Positions 2,676-35,058 of a stretch of DNA of 50,606 bases are shown in pieces. Every line of letters begins with the position of its first letter. Within the stretch, counting starts at the first letter, position 1. Where the stretch lies: the NCBI GenBank assembly GCA_016181145.1, contig JACOZW010000002.1, positions 1-50,606 on the forward strand. Direction: 5' to 3'. A program made the position numbers and the translations under genes. Source of the DNA: Candidatus Yanofskybacteria bacterium. Lineage in GTDB: Bacteria > Patescibacteriota > Minisyncoccia > 2-02-FULL-40-12 > GWA2-44-9. Below the pieces are notes generated by a model. That model ran no database searches, had not been told where the DNA came from, and saw only the letters and a list, made by a program, of their open reading frames with translations.

Positions 2676-2715
2676 TGTCAATATTGATACCTTTTGATAC
2701 CTTTTGATACGATAC
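2676..2715 (+). promoter_or_regulatory. phased-hexamer promoter/operator element (copy A): TGTCAA-TA-TTGATAC-CTTT-TGATAC-CTTT-TGATAC-GATAC
   Basis: TGATAC at 2685-2690, 2695-2700 and 2705-2710, exactly 10 bp apart. Also readable as TTGATA(-35, 2684-2689)-N16-GATACG(-10-like, 2706-2711). It ends 12 nt before the ATG at 2723. Confidence 0.55.
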
Positions 2716-2722
2716 ATAGGAT

Positions 2723-2968
2723 ATGTCTTCCATTAACCCACATGAAGTCTACACCGCTGCCGAGTCTAAGGAATTATTAAAGGTAAGCAGCAGTACCATG
2801 AAGCGCCTTTTGAAAAGTGGCTTCGTTCGTGCCAATAAAATCGGCGGTCAATATCGTATCATGGGAAAAGAGCTTCTGAGACTTCTCTCTCCATCTATGG
2901 AAAGGGGTGCTGTTAAAACTTATCAGAAAATAAAGAAGCGGATAAAAAGTAAAATCAAAAACTGGTAA
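2723..2968 (+). CDS. small DNA-binding protein, excisionase/MerR-like HTH (HTH_17 type)
   Basis: ESKELLKVSSSTMKRLLKSGFVRANKIGGQYRIMGKELLRLL matches the excisionase-family helix-turn-helix pattern (...vs..T..r....G.l.a.kiGg.wri....l...l). It has a basic C-terminal tail. The stop lies 3 nt before the next ATG. Confidence 0.7.
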   Translation: MSSINPHEVYTAAESKELLKVSSSTMKRLLKSGFVRANKIGGQYRIMGKELLRLLSPSMERGAVKTYQKIKKRIKSKIKNW

Positions 2969-2971
2969 TTT

Positions 2972-3973
2972 ATGGTTATATCTAGAACACCTTTTAGGAT
3001 ATCTTTTTTTGGTGGTGGTACAGATTATCCCGCCTGGTATCAAAAGAATGACGGGGCTGTTTTATCTACAGCCATCAACAAATACTGCTATATTACTTGC
3101 CGGTATTTACCGCCATTTTTCAAATACAAGCATAGGATCGTATATAGCAAGAACGAAACAGTAAGTGAGATAGCTGAAATAGACCATCCATCGGTCAGAG
3201 AAACTATGCGTTTTCTTAATATTGATAAAGGGTTGGAGATACATCACGACGGAGACTTGCCATCTATGTCCGGGCTTGGGTCCAGCTCTTCTTTTACTGT
3301 TGGACTTGTAAACGCGCTAAGCATTCTGAACGGAACACCAAAAACAAAGAGAGAAATAGCAATGAATGCGATCCATATTGAACAAAATATGATAAAAGAA
3401 AACGTTGGTTCTCAGGACCAAACGGCGGCAGCTTTTGGCGGACTCAATCGCATAAATTTTGGAGGTGATGAAGAAATATCTATCAAGCCATTAATCTTAA
3501 GCTCTAGCCGACTTGAATCTCTTCAGAACCATCTGTTATTATTTTTTACCGGCCTATCGCGAGATGCTTCAAGAATCGCAAAAGAACAGATAACAAACAT
3601 TAAAGATAGGGATGTCGAGTTGAAATTAATGCACAGACTAGTTGACGAAGGAGAGGCAATTTTAAAAAATAACAGAAAAGGGCTTGATGAATTCGGAAAA
3701 CTACTTAATGAGGGTTGGCAAATAAAAAAATCATTGTCATCAAAAATATCCAATCCGTACATCGACGATGTCTATAAGGCCGGAATGCAAGCCGGAGCGT
3801 TAGGGGGCAAGCTTCTTGGCGCGGGAGGGGGTGGATTTATTCTATTCTTCGCGAAACCAGAGTTACATAAAAAAATAAAAAGCAAATTAAAAAATTTGCT
3901 TTTTGTACCATTTCGATTTGATCATTTGGGCAGCCGGATTATCTATACTGGTAATGATTTTGAAAAATTCTAG
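2972..3973 (+). CDS. GHMP-family sugar kinase (HddA / heptose-7-phosphate-kinase-like)
   Basis: RTPFRISFFGGGTDYP N-terminus, GHMP motif II PSMSGLGSSSSFTVGL and motif III GGKLLGAGGGGFILFF. Confidence 0.85.
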   Translation: MVISRTPFRISFFGGGTDYPAWYQKNDGAVLSTAINKYCYITCRYLPPFFKYKHRIVYSKNETVSEIAEIDHPSVRETMRFLNIDKGLEIHHDGDLPSMSGLGSSSSFTVGLVNALSILNGTPKTKREIAMNAIHIEQNMIKENVGSQDQTAAAFGGLNRINFGGDEEISIKPLILSSSRLESLQNHLLLFFTGLSRDASRIAKEQITNIKDRDVELKLMHRLVDEGEAILKNNRKGLDEFGKLLNEGWQIKKSLSSKISNPYIDDVYKAGMQAGALGGKLLGAGGGGFILFFAKPELHKKIKSKLKNLLFVPFRFDHLGSRIIYTGNDFEKF

Positions 3974-6605: not shown

Positions 6606-7753
6606 GTCAGGCCTCCGGTTCGATATTCCAGATTTATTTTTTCTGGGCTAAACGGCTCTATGATTTTTTGATTGTTATCACAGAAAACTTCGACAAAAGT
6701 GGGCTGATCATCAGACATAATAACTTTTAGCTTCTCATCTATCTCTTCGTGGCCAGTTATAACCGCGTATCTCAACCCGAATGCATCAGCAATTTTAGCT
6801 AGATCTAGAGACTCAGCGCCAGTTTCATCATCTGATCCTATGCGCCTACCCTCAAAAACACTATCCTGCCAGTTTCTCATAGAAACGTATCCGCCATTAT
6901 TGATAACAAACAATTTTATATTAAGTCCGTAATACGATATCGTCTTAAGCTCCTGGATATTTAATTCGAGCGAGCCATCTCCTGTTATGGCTAAAATCTG
7001 GGCATCTTTCTTGGCAACACTTGCGCCGATAGCTAACGGAATTGTTAATCCCATTGCGGCAAATGTTCCGGACGTTAGCTCTCTCTGGCCATTTTCAAAT
7101 CTGAAGACCTGGCCGCCGACATAGTAATTTGAGCCGGCATCAGTAACCAAAACATTGCGCGCGCCGGAAAGTGCGTCAACTCTCGACATAAAATAGTAGA
7201 GGTCAATCGGATCTTTTACCATATCTTCTGTTACCATAGGATAAGCTTCTTTCAAACTTTGACAGTAGCTAAGCCAAGAGTTGAAATTGAAAGATCCGGA
7301 TAACTTAGCGTTTAATTTATTGATCACTGTTTTAACATCTGCATTTATAGGCAGGTCTATTCTCACGCCTGATTTTTTTAACTCGGCCGATTCTATATCG
7401 ACAACGATCCTGAATGCACTCTCGGAAAAAGCATCTAATTCGTGGCCGACAAACGGCACCGCAAGCCTGCTACCCAAAGAGATAATCAGATCCGCTGACT
7501 TTAGTATTTTTTTACAATACCGACTCCCCTTAATTCCTGCCAACCCCATATTGCTAGGATGAGAAAAAGGCAGAATATCAATACCGAGCCTGGATAGAAC
7601 CACCGGCGCATTAAGAAGATTCAACAATTCCTTAAAGTCATTTATAGCATTCCCCTGCCTGATTCCGTAACCAGCAACAATAAGCGGCCTGTGCGATTGG
7701 CTTATGGCATGCAGTATTAAATCAATATCCTTTTCCAGGTCATGTATCGGCAT
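6587..7753 (-). CDS. ThDP-dependent ALS/YerE-fold enzyme, central + C-terminal domains (N-terminal domain encoded separately)
   Basis: Central domain PLIVAGYGIRQ..., and the C-terminal ThDP motif GDGSLELNIQELKTISYYGLNIKLFVINNGGY (GDG-x24-NN). Confidence 0.85.
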   Translation of the reverse strand: MPIHDLEKDIDLILHAISQSHRPLIVAGYGIRQGNAINDFKELLNLLNAPVVLSRLGIDILPFSHPSNMGLAGIKGSRYCKKILKSADLIISLGSRLAVPFVGHELDAFSESAFRIVVDIESAELKKSGVRIDLPINADVKTVINKLNAKLSGSFNFNSWLSYCQSLKEAYPMVTEDMVKDPIDLYYFMSRVDALSGARNVLVTDAGSNYYVGGQVFRFENGQRELTSGTFAAMGLTIPLAIGASVAKKDAQILAITGDGSLELNIQELKTISYYGLNIKLFVINNGGYVSMRNWQDSVFEGRRIGSDDETGAESLDLAKIADAFGLRYAVITGHEEIDEKLKVIMSDDQPTFVEVFCDNNQKIIEPFSPEKINLEYRTGGLTWIAKS

Positions 7754-7769
7754 ACTTTTAACCGGCGGG

Positions 7770-8237
7770 CTAAAGCCTTGCCTTCTCCAGATGATATCTA
7801 ATTAAACTAGGATCATTAACCATAACCGCATACTTAGTTAAGGAACTTACTATTGGAATAATATCAATTTCAGCAGTTCCAAAACTTCTTAACCCAGGAA
7901 TTCCCATATTGTGAGTTGTGTGATTGCGCGGCGCTTGCCCGGATATGATCAGAACCGGAGCGGCATCAACATACGCCTCAGCTAAACCCGGTATGGCATT
8001 AGTTGAGCCCGGCCCGCTAGTAAGACAAACCGCCCCCAAAGACTGTTTTAGCCTGGCATATGCTTCAGCCATCATCGGAGAAGCCGCTTCGTTTCTGGCG
8101 CAATAATATTTTATGCTCGGCTGGCTTGCAATCCCATCATTAAGATACATAGCTCCATTTCCGGTGAGAAGAAAGATATCTTCGATACCATTATCAACTA
8201 GAAATCTGGCAATAAAATCTGCAACTCTTGTCATCAT
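7770..8237 (-). CDS. ThDP-dependent ALS/YerE-fold enzyme, N-terminal pyrimidine-binding domain (split or frameshifted from 6587..7753)
   Basis: FLLTGNGAMYLND, ARNEAASPMMAEAYARL and GPGSTNAIPGLAEAY motifs. It stops 16 nt before the next ORF, which is in another frame. A GGAGGG RBS lies just upstream. Confidence 0.85.
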   Translation of the reverse strand: MMTRVADFIARFLVDNGIEDIFLLTGNGAMYLNDGIASQPSIKYYCARNEAASPMMAEAYARLKQSLGAVCLTSGPGSTNAIPGLAEAYVDAAPVLIISGQAPRNHTTHNMGIPGLRSFGTAEIDIIPIVSSLTKYAVMVNDPSLIRYHLEKARL

Positions 8238-9196: not shown

Positions 9197-9255
9197 ATAC
9201 TAACTTAACTTATAAGGCTTGTCAAATTGACTTTTTTAGTTTTAACACTTATCAT
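9197..9255. promoter_or_regulatory. divergent promoter node with palindromic back-to-back -35 boxes (TGTCAA-A-TTGACT)
   Basis: Plus strand: TTGACT (9227-9232)-N17-TATCAT (9250-9255). Minus strand: TTGACA (reverse complement of 9220-9225)-N17-TAGTAT (reverse complement of 9197-9202). It shares the TTGTCAAATTGAC core with the 13129 site. Confidence 0.45.
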
Positions 9256-9264
9256 TATTCAAAA

Positions 9265-10239
9265 ATGCCGCCAACTTCTATGCCTAAAACAAATACAGTC
9301 CACTCGCTGACTCTCTATAGAAAAATGTACATGACAAGAAAAGCTGAAGAAAGAATCCAGATAGAAGACAAAAAAAATGAGATGAAGACTCCAATGCATA
9401 TGTCTATGGGAGAAGAAGCAATCTCTGCCGGAGTTTGTGCGGCCCTGAACAAAAGAGCGCAGATCTTTAGCACCTACCGGACACATGCCGTATATCTCTC
9501 GGCCACCGAAGATTTGAAAGGTTTTTTTGCTGAATTATACGGTAAAGCCACGGGGCCAGGAGGCGGCAAAGGAGGTTCTATGCATCTGGCTAATCCTAAG
9601 CGGGGCGTGATATTCAGTTCCGCAGTAGTTGCCACAAATATTGCTCCGGCTCTCGGAGCTGCTTTTGCAAACCGTCGATTAGGTAATGATAAGGTGGCTA
9701 CGACATTCTTCGGAGATGGGGCAGTCGACGAGGGTGTATTTTGGGAAAGTATTAATCTGGCCTGCCTCTGGAAACTACCCGTATTGTTCGTGTATGAAGA
9801 TAATAATTTAGCTATTCACACCCCGGCTTCTATAAGACATAGTTACAAAAACATCGTCGAGATAGTAAAAAAGTTTGGATGTCCAGCAGTAAAATATGAC
9901 GGTACTGATGTAGAAAAAATTTATCAACTAACAGAATCTGCATTGAAACAATTAAAGTCTGGGCCATTTTTTATGTCTTTAAAGTACTATCGATATCTTG
10001 AGCATGTGGGCATAGGAGAAGATTTTAATGCAGGCTATCGTTCTAAAGAAGAATTCCTGAAATGGCAAAAAATTGATCCCCTGGATACCCAGAGGGCAAG
10101 GTTAGTTAAATTGGGTCTCGAGAACACAGTGCTAGCACTAGAAAAGAAGGTGCTGAAAGATATTAATAATGCAGTTGACCTAGCAAAGTCAGCGCCATTT
10201 CCAGAACCAAGAGATCTTTACCGTGGAGTTTATGAATAA
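9265..10239 (+). CDS. ThDP-dependent 2-oxoacid dehydrogenase E1 component, alpha subunit
   Basis: GEEAISAGVCAAL, YRTHAVYL and GGKGGSMHL, plus the ThDP motif FFGDGAVDEGVFWESINLA...VYEDNNLAI. The start may be M1 or M6. Confidence 0.9.
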   Translation: MPPTSMPKTNTVHSLTLYRKMYMTRKAEERIQIEDKKNEMKTPMHMSMGEEAISAGVCAALNKRAQIFSTYRTHAVYLSATEDLKGFFAELYGKATGPGGGKGGSMHLANPKRGVIFSSAVVATNIAPALGAAFANRRLGNDKVATTFFGDGAVDEGVFWESINLACLWKLPVLFVYEDNNLAIHTPASIRHSYKNIVEIVKKFGCPAVKYDGTDVEKIYQLTESALKQLKSGPFFMSLKYYRYLEHVGIGEDFNAGYRSKEEFLKWQKIDPLDTQRARLVKLGLENTVLALEKKVLKDINNAVDLAKSAPFPEPRDLYRGVYE

Positions 10240-12155: not shown

Positions 12156-12179
12156 AAAAATGGACGGTAGTCCATTTTT
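12156..12179. terminator. short bidirectional hairpin between convergent genes
   Basis: AAAAATGGAC-GGTA-GTCCATTTTT, a 5-bp GC core flanked by A and T runs. Confidence 0.4.
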
Positions 12180-13069: not shown

Positions 13070-13106
13070 GACCCACCCAACCCGATAACTTAAAATAACT
13101 TTCAAT

Positions 13107-13164
13107 ATTTTATATCAAACTTATAATATTGTCAAATTGACACTTTTTGATACTTTTTGATACT
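13107..13164. promoter_or_regulatory. divergent promoter node: perfect palindrome TGTCAA-A-TTGACA plus phased hexamers (copy B)
   Basis: Plus strand: TTGACA (13137-13142)-N16-GATACT (13159-13164), with TGACAC/TGATAC/TGATAC at 13138, 13148 and 13158. Minus strand: TTGACA (reverse complement of 13130-13135)-N17-TAAAAT (reverse complement of 13107-13112). Confidence 0.55.
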
Positions 13165-13217
13165 TTTAACTATGCTGGTTAGGTTTCGAGCTAATCCAAT
13201 CACTATTTAATTTACAA

Positions 13218-16397: not shown

Positions 16398-16426
16398 TTG
16401 TGCTGTAATTGTATATGTGTTATAAA
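16398..16426 (+). promoter_or_regulatory. candidate promoter TTGTGC-N17-TATAAA (TG-extended -10)
   Basis: -35 at 16398-16403 and -10 at 16421-16426, preceded by TGT. Confidence 0.35.
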
Positions 16427-16459
16427 ATTAAAACTAGCATTTTAACAAGGGGTGTAGTT

Positions 16460-17391: not shown

Positions 17392-17393
17392 AG

Positions 17394-17417
17394 CCTCGCA
17401 TAATGCGAGGTTTTTTA
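17394..17417 (+). terminator. intrinsic terminator
   Basis: CCTCGCA-TAA-TGCGAGG hairpin followed by TTTTTT. Confidence 0.75.
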
Positions 17418-24456: not shown

Positions 24457-24492
24457 AACCGCCCCGAATTTATTGAACGGGCGGTTTTTTTT
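24457..24492 (+). terminator. intrinsic terminator
   Basis: AACCGCCC-(13-14 nt loop)-GGGCGGTT hairpin followed by TTTTTT. Confidence 0.7.
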
Positions 24493-24513: not shown

Positions 24514-24541
24514 TTGACATCAGCTGACACTTTTTGATACT
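24514..24541 (+). promoter_or_regulatory. phased-hexamer promoter/operator element (copy C)
   Basis: TGACAT (24515-24520), TGACAC (24525-24530) and TGATAC (24535-24540). Also readable as TTGACA-N16-GATACT. It ends 16 nt before the ATG at 24557. Confidence 0.5.
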
Positions 24542-24556
24542 CTAAGGTCAGATAAT

Positions 24557-25651
24557 ATGCCCAACAACGCATCGACAAACGCAGGTATCACAATCCCCAC
24601 GATGAACAGAGCTGATTTCGTTATCCGACAACTTCGCTACTATGCGTCGGTCAAGTGCCCACATACCATTTATATCGGCGACTCAAGCGACAAAGAAGAT
24701 TCGGAAAAAATACAAAATGAGGTAAAGCGGCTCGGAAGCTCGATCAAAGCAAAGTACTATTCTCTGCCCTCCTACAATATCTGGCAAGCCCACTATTATC
24801 TCCTCACCCAAGTAGAAGAAAAGTATACCTGTCTTAGCGGTGATGATGATTACCAGATACCAGATTCGGTAACTGAATGCGCCAAGTTTCTTGAAAATAA
24901 CCCGGAATATACAACCGCGAGCGGACATGCCGTAAGCTTCAGATTAAATCCTCATGGGGTCTATGGAAAACTTCTGAGGTTGGCTGATTATCACCGAGGA
25001 CAGATAGAAAATGGATCTGCCGCCGACCGGATCGTAGAATATTTCAATAGTTACTTTGTGACTTTTTTTTCTGTAAATAGAACTGAACAGACAAAAAGAT
25101 GCTGGAAAAGCTCCGAAAAAATACCGGACCAGGCATTTGGAGCAGAGATCCTGCCGTCATCCCTGCAAATAGTTAACGGCAAATCAAAGATAATAGATTG
25201 CCTTGGCTTCATAAGGCAGATCCATGGCCAACAGAATGGGTTAGTAAACACTTTCGAATGGATTACCAAGCCCATCTGGCTTGAATCGTATGAAAAATTT
25301 GAAAAAATAATTTCTGATGCCATGGTGGAGCGTGGCGGTATAAGCTATGCAGAGGCTAGAGAAGCAACACGATTGGGATTTTGGTCTTATCTTCAAACCT
25401 GGCTGGCAAAAGATTATAGAAGTACACTCTCGAGCAAAGGCCTGGACAAAACCAAGGACAGTAAAATAAAAGTCTTAAAAAGTACGCTTAAAAAGAAACT
25501 GCCCCTAATAGGAAAGGTGTATTCTGCGATAAAGCCCTTTATCTCAGATAAAAAGTATCTGCATTACGAAGTGCTTCAAAATAGCTCCAAATACTATAAG
25601 GATTTTAAGCCGGTCATGGATTCATTTACCGGTCAGATCAGGAATACCTGA
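24557..25651 (+). CDS. putative GT-A/GT2-like glycosyltransferase
   Basis: ITIPTMNRADF and SGDDDYQIP (DxD-like) resemble GT2 signatures. The remainder is not recognisable by eye. Confidence 0.45.
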   Translation: MPNNASTNAGITIPTMNRADFVIRQLRYYASVKCPHTIYIGDSSDKEDSEKIQNEVKRLGSSIKAKYYSLPSYNIWQAHYYLLTQVEEKYTCLSGDDDYQIPDSVTECAKFLENNPEYTTASGHAVSFRLNPHGVYGKLLRLADYHRGQIENGSAADRIVEYFNSYFVTFFSVNRTEQTKRCWKSSEKIPDQAFGAEILPSSLQIVNGKSKIIDCLGFIRQIHGQQNGLVNTFEWITKPIWLESYEKFEKIISDAMVERGGISYAEAREATRLGFWSYLQTWLAKDYRSTLSSKGLDKTKDSKIKVLKSTLKKKLPLIGKVYSAIKPFISDKKYLHYEVLQNSSKYYKDFKPVMDSFTGQIRNT

Positions 25652-25695: not shown

Positions 25696-25724
25696 ATCTA
25701 GGGGTTGGCAGATTACTCATTTTA

Positions 25725-25768
25725 TTTTACCTATAAGCAACCCTAACCAGGGTTGCTTATAGGTAAAA
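25725..25768 (+). promoter_or_regulatory. perfect 20-bp stem / 4-nt loop hairpin in the predicted 5' leader of the nonulosonic-acid operon
   Basis: TTTTACCTATAAGCAACCCT-AACC-AGGGTTGCTTATAGGTAAAA has no mismatch. There is no U tract after it on either strand. Confidence 0.5.
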
Positions 25769-25800
25769 TGGGGCAGCTTGACTTATTTATAATAACCGTT

Positions 25801-26559
25801 ATGAAAAAGGTGCGTATAATTCCACGCCTAGATATAAAAGGCCCTAACGTCGTGAAGGGTATTCACTGCGAGGGTTTACGTGTAGTTGGAAACCCCAAAG
25901 ACCTAGCTTATCGATATTATCGGGATGGAGCTGATGAAATTCTCTTTATGGATATAGTAGCCAGCCTATATCAACGCAACTTTGACTTTAATATTTTGAG
26001 ATCGATATCCGAAAGAATATTTATCCCCATAACCGTAGGGGGTGGTATTCGATCGATTAATGACATTAATAATGCGCTAAGATCTGGTGCTGATAAAGTT
26101 GCTATAAATACTTATGCCATTAAACACCCTGAGTTCCTGGGCACAGCGGCTCGAAAATTCGGATCTCAATGCATAGTTCTATCCATAGAGGCCAAAAGAA
26201 CTCCGTCTGGATGGTGGGAAGCCTACACAGATGGCGGGAGGGAGCACACTGGAATAAATGCTATTGAATGGGCGAGAAGGGCAATCAAGCTTGGAATTGG
26301 AGAGATTTTGGTCACATCAATAGATAATGACGGAACCAGGGATGGCTTTGATAATCAACTAATCCGATCTATCTCTTCTTTCTCTCCGGTTCCCGTAGTA
26401 ATTCATGGCGGAGCAGGATCTAAAAATTCATTTCTGAATGCTTGCCAAACCCATTTACCAGAAGGTCTGTCTGCTGCGTCTGTTTTCCATTATAAAGAGC
26501 TGTCCATAAAAGACTTGAAAAAATATTTATATAAAAATAATATTCCGGTACGGATATGA
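25801..26559 (+). CDS. hisF: imidazole-glycerol-phosphate-synthase cyclase-subunit homologue (HisF-like, WbuZ type)
   Basis: RIIPRLDIKGPNVVKG, ILFMDIVAS, ITVGGGIRS, EILVTSIDNDGT and IHGGAG motifs. Start set to the ATG at 25801 (MKKVRIIPRLD), because the listed TTG at 25753 lies inside the hairpin. Confidence 0.9.
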   Translation: MKKVRIIPRLDIKGPNVVKGIHCEGLRVVGNPKDLAYRYYRDGADEILFMDIVASLYQRNFDFNILRSISERIFIPITVGGGIRSINDINNALRSGADKVAINTYAIKHPEFLGTAARKFGSQCIVLSIEAKRTPSGWWEAYTDGGREHTGINAIEWARRAIKLGIGEILVTSIDNDGTRDGFDNQLIRSISSFSPVPVVIHGGAGSKNSFLNACQTHLPEGLSAASVFHYKELSIKDLKKYLYKNNIPVRI

Positions 26560-27188
26560 CACGAAAAAAAATTGCTATAATTGATTACGGCGTTGGCAAC
26601 TTACATAGCCTCCTAAAGGCCTTTGATCGATTTGGACAAAACAGTTTCATAACCGAAGAATCAAGCGATATTGATTCGGCTGATGCTATCGTCTTACCAG
26701 GCGTCGGCGCATTTCAATCTGGCATGGATGGATTAAAAATAAGAAACCTGATCAATCCCATAAAAAATTATGCGGAACAGAAAAAGCCCATTCTGGGAAT
26801 ATGTCTTGGAGCTCAAATCCTAATGTCTGAGGGATACGAATTTGGTAGATTTAAAGGCCTTGATATAATTCCGGGCAAAGTAGTGATTTTCAAAAATATA
26901 ACAGAAAAAGTACCCCACATAGGCTGGAATGAGATCTATTCACCGGCATCCGCAAATTGGAATAAGTCTATATTGAAATCAGTCAAATCTAACTCTGATG
27001 TTTATTTTGTCCATTCTTATATATTTCAGCCCAAAAATTATAAAAACATATTAGCGATTACCAAATATGGTGGTCTGGAGTTCTGCTCAGCAATATATAA
27101 AGATAGAATTTATGGTTGCCAGTTCCATCCGGAAAAAAGTGGAGAAATAGGATTAAAAATAATAAAAAACTTTATTGAACTAATATGA
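26556..27188 (+). CDS. hisH: glutamine amidotransferase subunit homologue (HisH-like, WbuY type)
   Basis: IAIIDYGVGNLHSL, LPGVGAF, GICLGAQIL (Cys nucleophile) and FHPEKS motifs. ATGA overlap with the upstream gene. Confidence 0.9.
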   Translation: MTRKKIAIIDYGVGNLHSLLKAFDRFGQNSFITEESSDIDSADAIVLPGVGAFQSGMDGLKIRNLINPIKNYAEQKKPILGICLGAQILMSEGYEFGRFKGLDIIPGKVVIFKNITEKVPHIGWNEIYSPASANWNKSILKSVKSNSDVYFVHSYIFQPKNYKNILAITKYGGLEFCSAIYKDRIYGCQFHPEKSGEIGLKIIKNFIELI

Positions 27189-28429
27189 AAACACTGTATG
27201 GTTTGCCCGAAAAAGTTATTTTTTGCAAGAAATGTGTAATATCAAACCAGCGCCCAAGTTCAGCTGTAGAGTTTAAGCACACCATTAAAAGCAAGAAGGA
27301 GACTATCCACTTCAATGAGAATAATGTATGCGATGCTTGCCTATATAACGAACAGAAAAAAAATATTGACTGGGACCTGAGGGAAAAAGAACTAATAAAG
27401 CTCTGTAATAAATATAGGAAGAGAAATGGTCAATACGATGTCTTGGTGCCCGGATCAGGAGGAAAAGACAGTATAAAAGCAGCTCATGTATTAAAGTACA
27501 AGTACGGAATGCATCCCCTTACTGTTACCTGGGCACCCCACATGCATACGCCCTGGGGATGGAAAAATTTCGAATCATGGATCCACTCCGGCTTTGATAA
27601 CTATCTATGCACACCCAACGGAAAGGTTCATCGACTCCTCACTAGATTAGCTGTCGAGAACTTATTCCATCCCTTTCAGCCGTTTATGATCGGCCAGAAA
27701 TCTCTTGCCCCAAAGATGGCATTATTATTCCGAATTCCCCTGATAATTTTCGGTGACAATGAAGCGGAATATGGCAATCCGATCGCCGACAACAATACCG
27801 CCCTGAGGGATTGGAAATATTTTACAGCAGAAGACCAAACCAAAATTTATTTAGGAGGAGTTTCTTTCAGGGATTTGAAGAGCAAATATGGACTCATCGA
27901 TGCAGACTTAATCCCCTACTTGCCGGCTGACCCCAAAGAGCTTAAGAGATTAAAAGCTGAAGTCCATTATCTGGGATACTATATGAAATGGCATCCGCAG
28001 GAATCCTATTATTATTCAGTGAAACATGCCGGCTTCCAGGCATCACCGGAAAGAACTCCCGGCACATACAGTAAATATAACAGCATAGACGACAAGATAG
28101 ATGACTATCATTACTATACGACCTTTATCAAGTTCGGGATTGGACGGGCAACATATGATGCCGCCCAAGAAGTCAGAAACGGAGAAATAACCCGCGAAGA
28201 AGGTGTGTCGTTAATACATAGATTCGACGGTGAATATCCGGACAGATTCGAAAAGGAGATATTTGATTATCTGACAATCGGCAAGCACGAATTCCCTAAG
28301 GCCTACAAGGAGTTGGGACATCCGGATATGAATAAGGATTATTTTATGAAATTGGCCGATAAATTCAGATCGCCTCACCTTTGGAAAAAAGAAAAAAATA
28401 AATGGATATTACGCCACCAAGTAAAATAG
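27185..28429 (+). CDS. N-acetyl sugar amidotransferase (WbuX / PseA family, PP-loop ATPase)
   Basis: PP-loop VLVPGSGGKDS and an N-terminal Cys cluster CKKCVISNQRP...CDAC. The gene order hisF-hisH-amidotransferase matches known acetamidino-sugar loci. Confidence 0.85.
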   Translation: MKTLYGLPEKVIFCKKCVISNQRPSSAVEFKHTIKSKKETIHFNENNVCDACLYNEQKKNIDWDLREKELIKLCNKYRKRNGQYDVLVPGSGGKDSIKAAHVLKYKYGMHPLTVTWAPHMHTPWGWKNFESWIHSGFDNYLCTPNGKVHRLLTRLAVENLFHPFQPFMIGQKSLAPKMALLFRIPLIIFGDNEAEYGNPIADNNTALRDWKYFTAEDQTKIYLGGVSFRDLKSKYGLIDADLIPYLPADPKELKRLKAEVHYLGYYMKWHPQESYYYSVKHAGFQASPERTPGTYSKYNSIDDKIDDYHYYTTFIKFGIGRATYDAAQEVRNGEITREEGVSLIHRFDGEYPDRFEKEIFDYLTIGKHEFPKAYKELGHPDMNKDYFMKLADKFRSPHLWKKEKNKWILRHQVK

Positions 28430-28430
28430 C

Positions 28431-29420
28431 ATGAGAAATATTCTAAGAGATTACAAAATTTTCGATATAGATCCCACTAGATCCAGAAGTAAGGACTTCT
28501 ATAAGAACATGCTTGATTACCGAGATCATACGATGAAACAATACCATCCCGCCATTAAAAGAGCTGGCTTTAAATGTTTGCTGTGCGGAAAATCTAGGGC
28601 AAAAGAGTTTCTGGAGTATGAGAATTATAAATTATTTGACTGCCTTTCCTGCGGATTAGTTTCACCTAACATAGATCTAGAAAAACTTAAATCGCTAGAA
28701 ATATATGATGACCCAGCCTATATCAAAGATGCGACGAGAGAGATATTAGATACTTATAATTACAGAAAGGGACAGTATGCACCGGAAAGATTAAATTATA
28801 TCCTCCAGAAAACTAAACTATCGCCTAATAAAATAAAATTACTAGACTTAGGCTGTGGCCCAGGATATTTCTTGAGCTATCTAAAAAATAAAAAGATAAA
28901 ATATAAGGGACTCGAATTAGCCAACTTCTTAGTTAAAATCTGCAAGCAAAAAAATCTTAATGTAGAGGGCTCTGATTTAAGAAAAGAGGTCTCTCAAAGC
29001 TATAATGTTATAACAATGTTTGATGTACTTGAACATTTAACGGATCCGGTTGGCTTGTTTAAGGATCTGAATAATAAAATAGTAAAGGGTGGATACGTTT
29101 TAGCATATACTCCCAATATCCACTCCTTGGCCTATTCACTAATGAAAGAAAGGCAGAATACTCTATATCCATTTCAACATTTGGCATTTTTTGACAACAA
29201 GTCGCTTAACTACCTTGCGAAAAAGACAGGATTTAAGGTTTTTTCAATAGATTACTTCGGATTAGATGTGGCGGATTACTTATACATGAAAGCTTATGAT
29301 GATGCTCATGACTATTTAGAAAAACTAAAAGATTTTATACCGACAATGCAAGCGGTAATTGATAAACAAAACTTAAGTAATCACATGCGAATAATATTTA
29401 AAAAAATAAAAAATGTATAA
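28431..29420 (+). CDS. class I SAM-dependent methyltransferase with N-terminal zinc ribbon
   Basis: CLLCG...CLSCG (two CxxC pairs), LLDLGCGPGYF and ITMFDVLEHL motifs. Confidence 0.85.
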   Translation: MRNILRDYKIFDIDPTRSRSKDFYKNMLDYRDHTMKQYHPAIKRAGFKCLLCGKSRAKEFLEYENYKLFDCLSCGLVSPNIDLEKLKSLEIYDDPAYIKDATREILDTYNYRKGQYAPERLNYILQKTKLSPNKIKLLDLGCGPGYFLSYLKNKKIKYKGLELANFLVKICKQKNLNVEGSDLRKEVSQSYNVITMFDVLEHLTDPVGLFKDLNNKIVKGGYVLAYTPNIHSLAYSLMKERQNTLYPFQHLAFFDNKSLNYLAKKTGFKVFSIDYFGLDVADYLYMKAYDDAHDYLEKLKDFIPTMQAVIDKQNLSNHMRIIFKKIKNV

Positions 29421-30111
29421 GAATAAAAAAATATTAGCCGTCATTACGGCACGCGGAGGATCCAAGGGAGTACAAAGAAAAAATATTAAGCCGCTGAATG
29501 GTCATCCCCTTATATCATATGTGATAAATACAGCTAAAGGATCAAAGCTCATAGATCAGGTTATAGTGTCTACCGAGGATAAGGAAATAGCCGAAATAGC
29601 AAAAAAATATGGTGCAATGGTACCTTTCATGCGCCCATTAGAACTCGCGAGTGATACCGCCAAAAGCCTCGATGTTCTCCTGCATGCCGTAAAGTATCTA
29701 GAGCAGGTAAATAAATATAAGGCCGATATTATTGTGTTAATCCAACCGACCACTCCGCTATCAATCACACAGGATATCGATGATTGTATTAAAAAACTAG
29801 TAGATACGCGCTCTAATTCCTGCACTACTGTAGCTGAAGTAGTAGAAAGGCCAGAGTATATGTATTCAATAAAAAACAATAAGGCTGTAGCTTATGTAAA
29901 AAATAGAGATCCAGAAGCTCGACGTCAAGACTTATCTAAGCTTTACATTTCAAATGGAGCGGCTTTCGCCGTAAAGAGAAATATACTGGTCAATAAGAAT
30001 ATGCTCGTGGACGAAGGGAATCACACTGCAGTAATAATGCCGAGAGAACGCTCCGTAGATATAAATGAGCCGCTAGATTTCAAGATTATCGAGGCACTAT
30101 TAGCAAAATAA
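29413..30111 (+). CDS. neuA: CMP-nonulosonic acid synthetase (acylneuraminate cytidylyltransferase)
   Basis: AVITARGGSKGVQRKNIKPLNGHPLI N-terminal signature, about 230 aa. Confidence 0.9.
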   Translation: MYKNKKILAVITARGGSKGVQRKNIKPLNGHPLISYVINTAKGSKLIDQVIVSTEDKEIAEIAKKYGAMVPFMRPLELASDTAKSLDVLLHAVKYLEQVNKYKADIIVLIQPTTPLSITQDIDDCIKKLVDTRSNSCTTVAEVVERPEYMYSIKNNKAVAYVKNRDPEARRQDLSKLYISNGAAFAVKRNILVNKNMLVDEGNHTAVIMPRERSVDINEPLDFKIIEALLAK

Positions 30112-30118
30112 CAAAGCT

Positions 30119-31174
30119 ATGAATGAAACAATAAGAATTGGATCTAAATCTATCGGCAAAGACAAGCCTGTTTTTATTATCGCTGAAGGCGGAGTTAATC
30201 ACAACGGACGCCTCGACTTGGCCTTGAAACTAGTTGATGCCGCCGCCGATGCCGGTGCTGATGCAATTAAGTTTCAGACTTGGACCACGCCAGAGTTAGT
30301 TACGATGCAGGCTCAAATGGCAGAATATCAGAAAAAAAATCTAGGTAAAACTACCTCTCAGGCGGAAATGCTCAGAAAAGTTGAATTAAAAGAAGAATAT
30401 TTTCCGGCAATTTTAAGGAGAGCTGCTAAAAGAAAACTTATCCTCCTATCGTCAGCTCATGGCGGATTTGCCGCCGTAGACCGAGTTCAAAGACTAGGAC
30501 TTCCGGCATTTAAGATAGCTTCTGGAGACACGGTAAATTATCCTATCCTAGCTCACGCTGCAAAATATGGAAAGCCCATAATTCTTGGAACTGGTATGTG
30601 CACAATGGCCGAGCTAAAAGAATCAATCCGAATTATGCGAAAAGCCGGAAATGATAAGATCGTCATGCTTCATTGCACAACCAACTATCCGACACCTTCT
30701 AACGAAGTAAACCTTCGAGCGATGCTGACAATGATGAGGGAGCTAGATGTTCTTATCGGTTACTCCGACCACACCATCGGCCATCAAGTTGCGACAATGG
30801 CTGTTACACTTGGCGCGTGCTGTATTGAAAAGCACTTGACACTTGATAAGAATATGGAGGGGCCGGACCACAAAGCATCGAGCGAACCACAAGAATTTAA
30901 GGCTATGGCAGACTCGATTCGCAATATAGAGGTTATTATGGGATCGCCGATTAAAAAGCCTTGCCCGAGCGAAACTAGAATAATGGCTATCGCCAGAAAG
31001 AGCATAGTCACGACTGCAACGATTAAAAAAGGTGATAGATTCACTAAAAATAATATTGGCATCAAGAGACCCGGCAACGGCATACCACCACAGCATTACT
31101 GGAAAATTCTAGGAGAGACTGCCAAAAAAAATATCTCTTCCGACAAGATCCTAAGACCATCTGATATAGAGTAA
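30119..31174 (+). CDS. neuB: N-acylneuraminate (nonulosonic acid) synthase
   Basis: FIIAEGGVNHNG, ADAIKFQTW and SDHT motifs, with a C-terminal SAF domain (IVTTATIKKGDRFTKNNIGIKRPG). Confidence 0.92.
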   Translation: MNETIRIGSKSIGKDKPVFIIAEGGVNHNGRLDLALKLVDAAADAGADAIKFQTWTTPELVTMQAQMAEYQKKNLGKTTSQAEMLRKVELKEEYFPAILRRAAKRKLILLSSAHGGFAAVDRVQRLGLPAFKIASGDTVNYPILAHAAKYGKPIILGTGMCTMAELKESIRIMRKAGNDKIVMLHCTTNYPTPSNEVNLRAMLTMMRELDVLIGYSDHTIGHQVATMAVTLGACCIEKHLTLDKNMEGPDHKASSEPQEFKAMADSIRNIEVIMGSPIKKPCPSETRIMAIARKSIVTTATIKKGDRFTKNNIGIKRPGNGIPPQHYWKILGETAKKNISSDKILRPSDIE

Positions 31175-31197
31175 ATTGTGTCACAATTTTTTATTTT

Positions 31198-32343
31198 ATG
31201 AAAAAGAAAGTACTGATAATTACAGGTGCTAGGTCCGAATACGGTTTATTAAAACCGGTGTTCCTAGAAATGCAAAAAAGTAAAAAAATAGAACCTCTTC
31301 TTTTGGTTACCGGCATGCATACTCTTAAAAAACATGGATACACGGTCAATGAAGTCAAGAACGATGGCATACCGATAGCTCATGTTGCAAGTATATCAGA
31401 AGACGACGATATGCTTTCAGCTTTAGCCAGCGAAATAACTAGTATTAAAAAGTACTGCATAGCCAATAAGCCCAACCTAATCCTAGTTAATGGCGATAGG
31501 GATGAGTCATTTGCGGGAGCAATCGTAAGTGGCCATTTAAAAATACCTCTTGGCCACATTCATGGCGGAGATGTAACCGGATTCGTGGTCGATGAATATA
31601 TCAGACATGCAACAACTAAGTTTGCCCATCTCCATTTTACAGCTAGTCCGGCCAGCTACAGGAGAGTACTTAAGCTGGGTGAGGAAAAATGGCGGGTTTT
31701 TTGTACGGGATCAACTGGACTGGACAGATATTCCGACATGGGTTTCCTTCCTAAGGAGGATCTAGCTAAGAAATATAATCTTAATCTGAATAAAAAATGG
31801 TTTTTAGTTATTCATCACCCAACACCATTAGATAAAATCTCGATCAAGCAGCAGATCAATCCCCTATTAGCCTCTCTGGCGGATTCTAAGGATACTGAAA
31901 AGATTGTTATTTATCCCAACTCCGATATGGGCAGTAAATTATTTATTAAAGAGATAAACAGATATAAAAATCGCCAAGATTTTCATATATATCCCAATGT
32001 TTCACTAAAAGACCATGCTAGTTTTATGAAAAATGTCAATATATTGATCGGTAATTCCAGTTCGGGTATCATTGAGGCGGCTTATTTCAAGCTACCAGTA
32101 GTCAATATAGGCAACCGGCAGAGGGGAAGGGAAAGAGATAATAATGTAATAAACTGCGCCTATGATAGAGAAAGTATTGAAAAATCGATTACTCTTGCTT
32201 CTTCGGCAAAATTTGTCAAAGATTGTAAAAAAATAAGAAGTCTATACAAATCCGGAGCTAGTAAAAAAATAGTTAAAATCATTGAACAAAATATCGATAA
32301 AAAAAATCTGTTTTTAAAGGAATTTACCTACTCAAAAATCTAA
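31198..32343 (+). CDS. neuC: UDP-N-acetylglucosamine 2-epimerase (hydrolysing)
   Basis: ITGARSEYGLLKPV, GDRDESFAGAI, GHIHGGD and NSSSGIIEA motifs. Confidence 0.88.
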   Translation: MKKKVLIITGARSEYGLLKPVFLEMQKSKKIEPLLLVTGMHTLKKHGYTVNEVKNDGIPIAHVASISEDDDMLSALASEITSIKKYCIANKPNLILVNGDRDESFAGAIVSGHLKIPLGHIHGGDVTGFVVDEYIRHATTKFAHLHFTASPASYRRVLKLGEEKWRVFCTGSTGLDRYSDMGFLPKEDLAKKYNLNLNKKWFLVIHHPTPLDKISIKQQINPLLASLADSKDTEKIVIYPNSDMGSKLFIKEINRYKNRQDFHIYPNVSLKDHASFMKNVNILIGNSSSGIIEAAYFKLPVVNIGNRQRGRERDNNVINCAYDRESIEKSITLASSAKFVKDCKKIRSLYKSGASKKIVKIIEQNIDKKNLFLKEFTYSKI

Positions 32344-34070
32344 TGCCATCTAAAACCAAAAAGCCAGTAAGAATTCTAGGAATTGGACCAGAGGTCTGGA
32401 TATCTTCGGCTGCCTTAATAGAAAATGGACGAATAGTCGCCGGTGCAGCCGAAGAAAGATTTAACCGACAGAAAGCATCTAGGGATTTCCCATTTAAATC
32501 TATTGAGCATTGTCTCAAGGAGGCAAAATGTAAATTCGAGGACATAGACTATGTTGCGGTCGGCTGGAATCCGGCCGTACACCTGAAGTTATATAATTAT
32601 AGATTTTCCAAGGCCTCGAGATGGCGGGCCGAATATTTATATTCCATACCAAACCACCTAATGACCCTGATGAAAGATAAGAAGGTAGATTATGTCGAGC
32701 AGAACTTCGCTCAAAAAAACGGAAAATGCCGGATAGCTTACGTGAACCACCATACTGCACACGCCGCTAATGCATTTTTCTTGTCACCCTATAAAAAGGC
32801 GGCTATTTTGACAGTCGACGGAAGAGGTGAAGATGACACTGCCCTATTTGCAATCGGCAATGGAAATAAAATAGAGGAGCTTCGAACCGTAGAACATCCT
32901 CACTCGCTAGGACTTGTTTATACTACATTCACCCAATTTCTGGGATTTCAAATCCATACTGACGAATGGAAGGTAATGGCTCTAGCCTCCTATGGTAGTA
33001 AAAATAATAGTTATTATACGTCTCTTAAAAAGATGTTTAAGCTGAAACCAGATGGACGTTTTGAAATTGATCTAACTTATTTTGATTATTACCTGCATGA
33101 TCGAAATAATTTTTGGTCACATAAGCTCACTCGAATATTCGGAGAGCCAAGAACTCCTGATTCGAAAATAACAAAAAGACATCAAGATATTGCCGCCGCC
33201 CTGCAACAAGTTACCGAGGAAGTTCTAGCTCATATGCTCAACTGCCTGTATAAAGAAACCGGAATAACTAACTTAACAGTTGGTGGAGGTACATTCATGA
33301 ATTCCGTTTTTAACGGAAAAATAACTAAAATGACGCCATTTAAAAATGTTTTTATTTCTTCTTGCCCAGATGACAGCGGCATATCAATAGGCGCCGCAAC
33401 CTACGTTTATAATCACATACTTGGCAACCCACACCGCTATGAGCAATCTCATAACTTCTACGGGCCAGAACTCACGGCCAGCCAGATCAATAAGGACCTG
33501 CTGAAATATGGCCAGAAAGCTACCTATATAAAAAATATAGAAAATTACGCAGCAAGACTAATTAGTGAGGGCAAAATCATAGGCTGGTTCCAGGGAAAAA
33601 TGGAATTCGGGCAAAGGGCTCTTGGGAACAGGTCCATATTAGCGGATGCCAGAGATCCAAACATGAAGGATAGAGTTAACTCGGTAATAAAATACCGAGA
33701 AAGTTTCCGGCCGTTTGCACCATCTATATTAGAAGAAGAGGTTCATGATTACTTCGACTGTGCAAAAAATTCTAAAGTTCCTTTCATGGAGAGGGTGTAC
33801 TTAATTAAGGAGGATAAACAAAAATCTATTCCGGCAGTAACCCATATCGATGGCACCGGGAGGTTACAGACAGTCAGCAGGGCCACTAACCCAAGATACT
33901 ATAAACTAATAGAAGAGTTTAAGAAACTCACTGGAATTCCCGTGGTAATGAACACTTCGTTTAACCTAAAGGGAGAACCGATCGTCTGTACCTCAACGGA
34001 TGCTATCAGGACTTTCCATTCCTGTGGATTAGATGCTTTGATAATTGGAAACTATGCGCTCTTAAAATAG
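32343..34070 (+). CDS. carbamoyltransferase (NodU/CmcH family)
   Basis: ILGIGPEVWISSAALIENGRIV, NHHTAHAANAF and NTSFNLKGEPIV motifs. TAATG overlap with neuC. Confidence 0.9.
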   Translation: MPSKTKKPVRILGIGPEVWISSAALIENGRIVAGAAEERFNRQKASRDFPFKSIEHCLKEAKCKFEDIDYVAVGWNPAVHLKLYNYRFSKASRWRAEYLYSIPNHLMTLMKDKKVDYVEQNFAQKNGKCRIAYVNHHTAHAANAFFLSPYKKAAILTVDGRGEDDTALFAIGNGNKIEELRTVEHPHSLGLVYTTFTQFLGFQIHTDEWKVMALASYGSKNNSYYTSLKKMFKLKPDGRFEIDLTYFDYYLHDRNNFWSHKLTRIFGEPRTPDSKITKRHQDIAAALQQVTEEVLAHMLNCLYKETGITNLTVGGGTFMNSVFNGKITKMTPFKNVFISSCPDDSGISIGAATYVYNHILGNPHRYEQSHNFYGPELTASQINKDLLKYGQKATYIKNIENYAARLISEGKIIGWFQGKMEFGQRALGNRSILADARDPNMKDRVNSVIKYRESFRPFAPSILEEEVHDYFDCAKNSKVPFMERVYLIKEDKQKSIPAVTHIDGTGRLQTVSRATNPRYYKLIEEFKKLTGIPVVMNTSFNLKGEPIVCTSTDAIRTFHSCGLDALIIGNYALLK

Positions 34071-34074
34071 ACCG

Positions 34075-35058
34075 ATGACTCAACGACATAAAAAAATAGT
34101 TATCATTGGAGCTGGCCAGATCGGAAGCAGGCATCTACAAGCCATGAAATCGGTCAGTTTACCACTAGAGATACTGATTGTTGACCCTAGTACCAAATCC
34201 CTACAGACAGCCGAGGAAAGATATTTATCGATGCCAAAAGGTAAATTTGAGCATGCGCTCAAATTTCAAAACAGCATGCCCAATAACCTAATTTTCGACT
34301 TAGCTATTATTGCAACGTGTTCCGATATAAGAGCTAAGGTAACCGCAAAACTATTAAATTCCAATCGCATAGACAATCTAGTCCTGGAGAAGATTCTCTT
34401 CGCTAACGGATCCGACTATAAGACTATCGGAAAATTACTAAATAAATCTGATGCAACCGCCTGGATTAACTGCCCAATGAGAATGATGCCTGCATACCAA
34501 GCGATAGAAAAATATTTTAAGAAAGAAAAAATTTCATACATAGTCACCGGGAGTAAATTCGGCCTTATAACCAATGCGATACACTATCTTGACCACGCAT
34601 CTCATTTATCCGGTACGACAGAGTTTGAAATCAATACCGATGGCCTTAATTCGAAACCGATTAGCAGTAAGCGAAAAGGGTTTTTGGAATTCAACGGGAC
34701 TTTGACTGCTCACTTTTCAAATGGAAGTAATGTATCACTAACTTGCCATCCCGAAGGAAATGCTCCGATTATAGTTGAAATACACGGCAATAAAACTAAA
34801 TATATCGGCCGAGAATCCGAAGGAAAAGCCTGGCTGGCGAGAGCCGACAATAATTGGCATTGGGAAGAGTTGGAAGCTCCCATCCCCTTCCAAAGCCAGT
34901 TGACGACTATACTAACTGAGAAAATATTAAATACAGGTAAATGCGATCTGGTTTCATATAATGAATCCGGAAAGATCCACCTAAACATGCTCGAGCCATT
35001 AAGATATTTTTTAAACAAGAACTCAAAAAAGAAATATAAAGAATATCCCTTCACGTAA
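34075..35058 (+). CDS. Gfo/Idh/MocA-family oxidoreductase
   Basis: KIVIIGAGQIGSRHLQA N-terminal Rossmann motif, with length and layout typical of the family. Confidence 0.7.
   Translation: MTQRHKKIVIIGAGQIGSRHLQAMKSVSLPLEILIVDPSTKSLQTAEERYLSMPKGKFEHALKFQNSMPNNLIFDLAIIATCSDIRAKVTAKLLNSNRIDNLVLEKILFANGSDYKTIGKLLNKSDATAWINCPMRMMPAYQAIEKYFKKEKISYIVTGSKFGLITNAIHYLDHASHLSGTTEFEINTDGLNSKPISSKRKGFLEFNGTLTAHFSNGSNVSLTCHPEGNAPIIVEIHGNKTKYIGRESEGKAWLARADNNWHWEELEAPIPFQSQLTTILTEKILNTGKCDLVSYNESGKIHLNMLEPLRYFLNKNSKKKYKEYPFT

Follow-up and report, generated by a model that had tools for sequence, protein, structure and literature searches.

A small HTH_17 protein and phased TGAYAY direct repeats as a predicted promoter-operator system of surface-glycan operons in Patescibacteria

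Several small winged-helix proteins are known to recognise direct repeats that follow the turn of the DNA helix. BldC forms head-to-tail cooperative multimers on 9-bp direct repeats (AATTnnnnC) that vary in number, with its wing inserted in the narrowed AT-rich minor groove and an arginine of the recognition helix reading a C-G pair (PMC5859096). Xis, Cox and Apl place one monomer on each direct repeat, with the repeats spaced one turn apart, and Apl and Cox repress the promoters that their operators overlap (PMC7498355); D29 Gp36 is a MerR-like repressor that also acts on direct repeats (PMC12266134). Almost nothing is known about gene regulation in Patescibacteria, also called the candidate phyla radiation (CPR), and a 2024 review of their unexplored biology does not contain the terms ‘transcription factor’, ‘promoter’ or ‘sigma’. 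Here we analyse a stretch of 50,606 bp, the whole of one contig of a Candidatus Yanofskybacteria metagenome-assembled genome (hereafter the window), in which four sites composed of three TGAYAY hexamers stand ahead of surface-glycan genes and the first of them ahead of a gene for an 81-aa helix-turn-helix (HTH) protein. Judged from sequence, the four elements are best explained as sigma70-type promoters that each contain an operator, for which the 81-aa protein is the candidate ligand. The elements and the gene are as follows.

2684..2713, + strand: putative promoter-operator A; -35 TTGATA at 2684-2689; 42.4 bits
2723..2968, + strand: 81-aa HTH_17 gene; BldC/Xis-like winged HTH, candidate ligand and autoregulator
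13137..13166, + strand: putative promoter-operator B; TTGACAC-TTTT-TGATAC-TTTT-TGATAC-TTT; 46.1 bits
24514..24543, + strand: putative promoter-operator C; TTGACAT-CAGC-TGACAC-TTTT-TGATAC-TCT; 35.5 bits
25668..25697, + strand: putative promoter-operator D; TTGACAC-TTTC-TGATAC-CTTT-TGATAC-CAT; 40.7 bits

The pattern TGAYAY-N4-TGAYAY-N4-TGAYAY matches the window exactly four times, at 2685-2710, 13138-13163, 24515-24540 and 25669-25694, always on the + strand, and was not found at all in 100 dinucleotide-preserving shuffles. The shorter two-hexamer pattern has eight matches against 0.15 expected, all of which lie within the same four sites. A weight matrix built from 41 independent triple-hexamer sites of other organisms scores the four window sites at 35-46 bits and every other position at no more than 22 bits; the scores of 5-22 bits come from the same four sites read in a 10-bp-shifted register, and the best unrelated position reaches ∼1 bit, so that the matrix reveals no weaker hidden copies in the window. 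In 30 mononucleotide shuffles the maximum score had a mean of 2 and a largest value of 19. Each site is intergenic and aimed at a + strand gene (ATGs at 2723, 13218, 24557 and 25801), with 12, 54, 16 and 106 nt between the third hexamer and the start codon at sites A, B, C and D, respectively. The first-pass annotation, which had been made from the letters of the window alone, was thus right in placing four phased copies in the gaps before these operon starts and in letting copy A end 12 nt ahead of the 81-aa open reading frame (ORF). A T precedes the first hexamer at all four sites, giving TTGATA or TTGACA. At site A the hexamers occupy 2685-2690, 2695-2700 and 2705-2710 with CTTT between them, the third being part of an extended -10, TG-A-TACGAT, at 2705-2713, and this site appears in the promoter listing as TTGATA-18-TACGAT with the TG. 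The flanks of the four window sites are not mutually alignable and conservation is limited to ∼30 bp.

The 81-aa protein carries the excisionase-type HTH that had been read from its sequence: Pfam HTH_17 (PF12728) matches residues 9-55 with an E-value of 9e-8 and 32.7 bits, above the gathering cut-off of 27. The protein matches at least 342 clusters (90% identity); of the 120 that were listed, nearly all have 80-82 aa, all contain PF12728, and the only names among them are ‘excisionase family DNA binding protein’ and ‘helix-turn-helix domain-containing protein’. Residues Y10, T11, E14, S22, S24, T25, K27, R28, K31, A37, K39, G41, Y44, R45, G48 and E50 are invariant or nearly so, and the presumed DNA-contact residues among them (S24, T25, R28, K31, R45) are invariant. 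Further along the chain S56, P57, K71 and W81 are invariant in both ortholog alignments and E60 and Y67 invariant or nearly so. In the AlphaFold2 model (mean pLDDT, the predicted local distance difference test, 89.6) residues 9-55 fold into a strand and two helices, then a two-stranded wing and one more helix, after which comes a long basic helix (57-80) predicted with high confidence. The best Foldseek matches in the PDB are the BldC-DNA complexes 6ama and 6amk (probability 1.00, target-normalised template-modelling score 0.66-0.74, root-mean-square deviation 2.0-2.4 Å for the best chains over ∼51 residues at 25-27% identity), with E-values of only ∼0.01 owing to the small size of the domain; mycobacteriophage Pukovnik Xis (4j2n), the RdfS excisionase (8dgl) and MerR-type NmlR are also among the best matches. 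Searches of PDB sequences with the protein or its profile returned no meaningful match, and the kinship with BldC and Xis is therefore one of fold only. When 50%-identity representatives were searched, only 4 proteins reached E <= 1e-30 and 81 reached E <= 1e-10, and because most library matches stop short of the C-terminal helix, this helix appears to mark the orthologous group. A match to the MamR family (NCBIfam NF040990) was rejected, its 42.6 bits falling below the cut-off of 100 and stemming only from the shared HTH_17 domain. Four of the proteins encountered carry four or five tandem HTH_17 domains in one polypeptide (five by Pfam in one of them, P0132); these are presumably covalent head-to-tail arrays that read four or five phased direct repeats.

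Comparison with the described systems shows where the window protein would fit. BldC, the MerR-like, HTH_17-type developmental regulator of Streptomyces, is its best structural match and is likewise a small winged-HTH protein, and the AT-tract and C-G pair of each BldC repeat have counterparts in the T4 tract plus TGAYAC of the window unit and in the invariant R28 of the predicted recognition helix; direct repeats one turn apart with an AT-tract would thus be common to both, if the sites belong to the 81-aa protein. However, BldC consists of a winged HTH only (PMC5859096), whereas the window protein continues into the conserved basic helix 57-80 and the invariant W81. The repeats also differ (AATTnnnnC versus TGAYAC), as do their positions, which for BldC include unusual ones at -50 to -80 whereas the window operator coincides with -35, spacer and -10, and as do the regulons, development in BldC and predicted surface glycans in Patescibacteria. 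The recombination directionality factors (RDFs; 186 Apl, P2 Cox, lambda and Pukovnik Xis, RdfS) share the winged-HTH fold, with 4j2n and 8dgl among the top matches, and the highly cooperative binding of one monomer per repeat to direct repeats one turn apart, in Apl and Cox with repression of the overlapped promoter (PMC7498355; PMC11963761). They are encoded by phages or integrative and conjugative elements and act with an integrase at att sites, whereas the window gene is a chromosomal operon leader with no integrase; and relaxed specificity has been reported for RDFs, whereas the window-type sites are exactly 10 bp apart and highly conserved in sequence. D29 Gp36 is a small MerR-like protein that oligomerises weakly on direct repeats and represses downstream genes (PMC12266134), but it is phage-encoded, its repeats are GC-rich and the likeness considered here is at superfamily level. 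The pho boxes of PhoB/OmpR proteins are also direct repeats with a period of ∼10-11 bp in the -35 region, as is generally known (see also PMC5859096), but those regulators have a different DNA-binding fold and a receiver domain, and the pho box replaces a missing -35 whereas the window repeat is itself TTGACA. Classical MerR proteins, finally, bind palindromes as symmetric dimers across 19-20 bp spacers, unlike the direct repeats and 16-18 nt spacer found here. By analogy, the system would work like BldC, Apl or Cox, and its protein belongs to Pfam HTH_17. Without integrase or mobile context the protein is no bona fide excisionase; nor is it of the BldC family, if that is taken to comprise the winged HTH only, nor a classical MerR. 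The idea that phased direct repeats suit an oligomeric protein lying on one face of the helix is strengthened by the BldC/Xis-type fold, which belongs to a family known for such repeats (PMC5859096, PMC7498355).

The association between motif and HTH gene was approached from both sides. A scan of 185,579 species-representative genomes with the strict motif TGAYAYNNNNTGAYACNTTTTGATAC yielded 88 stretches, against ∼2 expected by chance by our own calculation, with Patescibacteria dominating; the record titles name Yanofsky-, Saccharibacteria, Wolfe-, Falkow-, Campbell-, Buchanan- and Doudnabacteria, Paceibacter and unclassified Patescibacteria. In 32 of the 88 stretches an HTH ortholog (51-68% identity) lies directly downstream on the same strand, nearly all of these loci being labelled Patescibacteria and a few Gammaproteobacteria or SAR324 (labels as recorded). 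In the opposite direction, a metagenome profile scan gave at least 562 relatives of the protein, of which the best 80 (56-73% identity) were kept and 72 were non-identical with enough upstream sequence. Phased repeats are found no further than 150 nt upstream of the HTH gene in 66 of these 72 loci (37 with three hexamers, 26 with two, 3 with a looser pair), and in three of the remaining six the motif lies 150-190 nt upstream. The strict phased pair, present in 63/72, would be expected at ∼1 in 1,000 per position, again by our own calculation. When syntenic intergenic regions are aligned, the motif alone is conserved. Related islands therefore keep both the motif and the HTH gene, and the earlier proposal of the 81-aa protein as ligand and autoregulator gains support from this two-way linkage and from its fold, while binding itself is predicted.

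The remaining non-Patescibacteria matches of the motif scan (Coleofasciculus, Bacteroidales, Omnitrophica, Ignavibacteriales, Verrucomicrobia, Clostridia) were rejected as members of the regulon, since they belong to TGATACC-repeat families without an HTH homolog. These unrelated multi-copy families consist of TGATACC-TTT units followed by a family-specific conserved sequence, for example ‘...ctgtcagttctcgtgtcag...ctgacaccagggtatcaaa’, which is common to three phyla. Eight such loci are from Coleofasciculus, seven from Omnitrophica, Ignavibacteriales or Bacteroidales, and four from Verrucomicrobia bin-1889. They have no HTH homolog and no Rfam match, their neighbours are unrelated genes, and they may be mobile or iteron-like elements. 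The one exception is L059, a Flavobacteriaceae mobile element of Snuella sedimenti (NZ_JAELVQ010000028.1, 7346-8000), in which the C-terminus of a tyrosine integrase, four TGACAC/TGATAC hexamers in exact 10-bp phase (7720-7755), an HTH_17 gene and Rep (ORF2/G2P) follow one another; its HTH_17 protein (103 aa, minus strand) is 29% identical to the window protein over the HTH. The occurrence of such phased hexamers next to an Xis-type gene hints at common ancestry, or a common DNA specificity, between the CPR regulator and an excisionase.

The genes that follow the HTH gene and the motif point to a common function. Of 99 loci in which the gene immediately after the HTH gene was tallied, it encodes an ABC exporter in 38, a GDP-mannose 4,6-dehydratase in 25, an ABC-2 (Wzm-like) permease in 16, a GHMP kinase in 4, a phosphoenolpyruvate mutase fusion in 3, a Wzx-like flippase in 3 and other proteins in 10. 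The pairing with a GHMP kinase seen in the window recurs in five relatives, and in the same five the site orthologous to A can be aligned. The DegT gene behind site B has an ortholog in one relative that is preceded by a two-hexamer site, and the HisF-like gene behind site D has motif-preceded orthologs in two. For the TIGR04440 glycosyltransferase behind site C there are four such orthologs, two of them in close relatives; in one of these two (L040) the third hexamer has drifted to TGGTAT and the cassette that follows is unlike that of the window, yet the motif still stands at its head. Elsewhere in Patescibacteria the motif precedes genes for a dehydratase whose N-terminal sequence is PseB-like, a CMP-sugar synthetase recognised by its BLAST match to the window gene, and a pyruvate-kinase-barrel/ATP-sulfurylase fusion, as well as for an MptE/Maf-like protein, a radical-SAM enzyme and a GT2 protein. 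By these downstream neighbours and motif-preceded genes, the HTH gene is the leader gene of surface-glycan operons and the motif marks the heads of glycan cassettes.

The anatomy of the elements is that of a promoter. A TTGAYA -35 is followed at a spacer of 16-18 nt by a -10 at operon starts, as in sigma70-type promoters, and the repeat unit is 10 bp, a T-tract (YTTT) plus TGAYAC, phased three times with an exact 10-bp period at each of the four window sites and in the majority of 93 ortholog promoters. The first hexamer follows a T in 68 of the 73 non-redundant sites, which makes TTGACA or TTGATA. In 66 three-hexamer sites upstream of HTH orthologs, a T stands three bases past hexamer 3 in 83% and an A ten bases past it in 70%, and the ATG most often lies 9-10 nt past hexamer 3 (a sharp mode, 24/66), with a second mode at 18-19 nt. 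More distant orthologs keep hexamers 1 and 2 and have TATAAT, TATACT or TATGAT, 16-18 nt from TTGACA, in place of the third. The preceding T, the conserved downstream T and A, the distance to the ATG and the TATAAT-like replacements together argue that hexamer 1 is the -35 and that hexamer 3 overlies the -10. Two registers are available for the latter, the extended TGnTACnnT with an 18-nt spacer and GATACT with a 16-nt spacer, each being the best fit in half of the sites. Of the first-pass reading, the -35 at hexamer 1 therefore stands, but the -10 assigned as GATACN at 16 nt is ambiguous, because TGnTACnnT at 18 nt fits equally often and is favoured by the conserved T three bases past hexamer 3.

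With either register, transcription is predicted to begin at the ATG or no more than 2-3 nt from it in ∼40% of the orthologs, including the window HTH gene and site C, and in view of the modal distance of 9-10 nt the mRNAs from these promoters would be leaderless or nearly so. Canonical promoters of the window also stop 9-10 nt before a start codon (9227-9265, with the -10 ending at 9255 and the ATG at 9265), and leaderless initiation may be common in the Yanofskybacteria host and not specific to the regulon. Other promoter classes fit less well. A sigma54 promoter was rejected on inspection: TGACAC-N4-TGATAC resembles TGGCAC-N5-TTGC only superficially, and the GG and GC dinucleotides, which are near-invariant in sigma54 promoters, are missing. 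Promoters of the sigma28, extracytoplasmic-function and Bacteroidetes types were likewise rejected, as their generally known consensus sequences do not fit. ATCCAC, often as TTATCCAC (DnaA-box-like), occurs 8-12 nt upstream of hexamer 1 in 12 of the 93 HTH promoters, ∼12x background; the window's four sites are not among the carriers.

That the motif exceeds a generic promoter, as had been argued from the window, is supported by the promoters around it. The remaining operon starts of the first 20 kb are served by canonical promoters that lack a middle hexamer (TTGACA-17-TATTAT, TTGACA-17-TAGTAT, TTGACT-17-TATCAT, TTGACA-16-TAGAAT and TTGACA-17-TAAAAT, for example). Away from the HTH promoters, 10 two-hexamer matches occur in ∼391 kb of related Patescibacteria DNA, confined to a few sites, and the downstream genes identified for two of those are glycan genes of the DegT and HisF types. 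A complete 0.98-Mb Wolfebacteria genome contains 1 strict motif match. As far as the window, the 391 kb of related DNA and the one Wolfebacteria genome are representative, the element is not an organism-wide housekeeping consensus.

Our results suggest a mechanism in which the 81-aa winged-HTH protein would bind one protomer per 10-bp unit, head-to-tail on one face of the helix, across -35, spacer and -10, with three protomers, or two in some lineages. Unit 1 would be the -35 itself (TTGACA), unit 2 would fill the spacer, and unit 3 would supply the TG and TA of the extended -10, or GATACT. The bound protein would then compete with RNA polymerase for the same bases and so repress its own nearly leaderless mRNA, in an autorepression, together with the three other glycan operons. 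Since unit 1 is a perfect TTGACA and two-hexamer variants carry a near-consensus -10, the promoters are probably active unaided, with the protein acting as a repressor. We consider it likely that the 81-aa protein binds the repeats and regulates its own gene; granted that much, repression seems to us roughly three to four times as likely as activation. It is from the sites and the protein that we infer the identity of the binding protein, its stoichiometry and the sign of regulation. No sensor domain was found in the 81-aa protein and no input signal is evident; a partner or ligand would most obviously be sought at the conserved basic C-terminal helix, which ends in Trp.

From the genomic comparisons, the system is chromosomal and conserved across Patescibacteria, the HTH gene being typically the first of an operon for surface-glycan synthesis or export. 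The complete picture, in which a Patescibacteria-wide glycan regulator descended from an Xis/RDF-like protein uses the -35 hexamer as operator unit and opposes sigma70 with a three-protomer filament at a leaderless, autoregulated promoter, is put forward tentatively, with a probability that we place a little short of even. Several points weigh against binding and autorepression by the 81-aa protein. The assignment of protein to site draws on association and on a site architecture typical of the family. The linkage holds for the closest relatives, the best 80 of at least 562 (56-73% identity), and the motif-preceded glycan genes of several genomes were judged without a genome-wide view of the HTH gene. 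The 24-residue C-terminal helix has no counterpart in BldC or Xis, and in classical MerR proteins a long helix leads to symmetric dimers and palindromes. A further weakness concerns the sign of regulation: activation is also known for BldC, and direct repeats over the -35 are equally a feature of PhoB-type activators.

The same protein on the same repeats might indeed be an activator, acting at the -35 in the manner of PhoB, where it would replace or assist sigma region 4, or through a MerR/BldC-like distortion of an overlong 18-bp spacer. The non-consensus -10 (TACnnT or GATACN), the spacer of perhaps 18 nt and the MerR-superfamily fold, with NmlR among the structural matches, are consistent with this, and classical MerR activates by untwisting overlong spacers of 19-20 bp (PMC5859096). 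We nevertheless regard activation as unlikely: most sites have a perfect TTGACA -35, the two-hexamer relatives have a near-consensus -10 at 16-17 nt and should fire unaided, the repeats cover bases that sigma must read, and the direct-repeat binders Apl and D29 Gp36 are repressors (PMC7498355; PMC12266134). A different protein could occupy the repeats, for example an OmpR/PhoB-type response regulator with the HTH_17 gene as its target, not as the regulator; response regulators are the best-known bacterial binders of 10-11 bp direct repeats over the -35 (PMC5859096), and the identity of a ligand is not provable by association alone. However, no receiver domain, response regulator or other DNA-binding regulator was detected by Pfam and NCBIfam in the ∼51 ORFs of the window, HTH_17 is the sole DNA-binding gene whose link to the motif is consistent over many lineages of Patescibacteria, and its structural family itself binds direct repeats, all of which leaves this explanation with a slight probability, marginally below that of the next.

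It is also improbable, at a level far beneath that of activation, that the elements are just a strong promoter variant in which the middle hexamer and T-tracts serve curvature or strength, with no dedicated regulator and the HTH gene there by coincidence. Full promoter features are present, and phased T-tracts bend DNA intrinsically. Yet sigma70 reads the spacer region without base specificity, while the middle hexamer is as conserved as the -35 (∼1.7 bits at TGA.AC over the 41 sites, in a matrix that was anchored on the hexamer pattern); the 63 of 72 protein-selected loci with a strict phased pair, which are independent of that anchoring, the canonical promoters of the same window without a middle hexamer, and the near-exclusive tie of the element to one DNA-binding gene and its functional neighbours all argue for a regulator. 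Least probable of all, to a degree that makes it close to negligible, is a true excisionase (an RDF), with the hexamers as arm-type sites of a mobile glycan island. The source annotation reads ‘excisionase family DNA binding protein’, and the integrase/HTH_17/Rep element of Flavobacteriaceae described above has four identical phased hexamers; but none of the 51 ORFs on the 50.6-kb contig has an integrase or recombinase domain, each of the four sites belongs to a promoter of its own, oriented to the gene and at promoter distance, and the gene is syntenic with chromosomal glycan operons in ∼100 loci.

Literature searches on the motif and on Patescibacteria/CPR gene regulation found no description of an HTH_17-phased-repeat system. 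Our analysis provides a sequence-defined candidate operator, an 81-aa candidate regulator, a promoter model that includes leaderless starts, and a predicted regulon of nonulosonic-acid and other sugar pathways with ABC, Wzm and Wzx exporters. If correct, repression by the 81-aa protein at phased repeats would, according to those searches, be the first assignment of a transcription factor, operator and regulon specific to ultrasmall episymbiotic bacteria, and the regulated surface structures would be those most likely to mediate contact with the host. It would also extend BldC/Xis head-to-tail binding on phased repeats to a chromosomal housekeeping role in a new lineage. Loci with this arrangement carry the labels Yanofsky-, Wolfe-, Falkow-, Campbell-, Buchanan-, Doudna- and Saccharibacteria; some Saccharibacteria are cultivable and genetically tractable, and the prediction is therefore directly testable.

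The glycan island of the window, as read from Pfam and NCBIfam, encodes a DegT/PseC-type aminotransferase, many NDP-sugar epimerases and dehydratases, the amidotransferase set WbuX, HisH-like and WbuZ, NeuB, a CMP-sugar synthetase, a UDP-GlcNAc 2-epimerase, a carbamoyltransferase, methyltransferases, radical-SAM enzymes, thiamine-diphosphate enzymes, a GHMP sugar kinase, an MptE/Maf-like protein and several glycosyltransferases. The units downstream of the four sites, together with the predicted leader hairpin of the last, are listed below.

2972..3973, + strand: GHMP-family sugar kinase (HddA-like), starting 4 nt past the HTH stop codon
13218..17391, + strand: operon B, DegT/PseC-type aminotransferase and NDP-sugar epimerases/dehydratases (Pfam/NCBIfam)
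24557..25651, + strand: TIGR04440-type (TIGR00180 family) glycosyltransferase, a single-gene unit (NCBIfam)
25724..25769, + strand: hairpin with a perfect 21-bp stem and a 4-nt loop, in the predicted 5' leader that separates promoter D from the HisF-like gene
25801..35058, + strand: operon D, WbuZ/HisF-like, HisH-like, WbuX amidotransferase, methyltransferase, CMP-sugar synthetase, NeuB, UDP-GlcNAc 2-epimerase, carbamoyltransferase and oxidoreductase

The GHMP kinase is probably co-transcribed with the HTH gene, a terminator-like hairpin at 17390-17414 closes operon B, and the genes of operon D together look like a nonulosonic-acid pathway. The motif heads 4 of ∼14 transcription units (∼18 of 51 ORFs), so that the first-pass proposal of the whole island as a single regulon was overstated.

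Some structures adjoin the sites themselves. A GC-rich hairpin followed by a T-run lies upstream of site C at ∼24458-24492. A different hairpin with the same TTACCT...AGGTAA ends as that behind promoter D is found at 1652-1695 of L030, one of the five relatives with the GHMP kinase pairing, between the motif and the HTH gene; these hairpins may represent a small palindromic insertion element, or else an RNA structure of the leader. Neither the window nor six non-CPR loci have a match in Rfam, so that neither the repeats nor the leader hairpin correspond to a known RNA family. At site B a divergent canonical promoter on the minus strand (13107-13135, TTGACA-17-TAAAAT), serving an RmlD-like gene at 12179-13105, abuts hexamer 1, and a filament at this site could also affect that divergent gene. 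At site A and in a few relatives GTCAA stands just upstream of hexamer 1, creating a short palindrome, GTCAAT/ATTGAC.

Two genes of the island are split. An NAD-dependent epimerase at 16409-17391 is divided into ORFs of 103 aa and 224 aa that overlap by 4 nt, and a GT4 glycosyltransferase at 38861-40069 into adjacent ORFs for an N-terminal piece of 254 aa and a C-terminal piece of 138 aa. The GT4 glycosyltransferase occurs as the same two separate pieces in three relatives, which suggests that this arrangement may be genuine.

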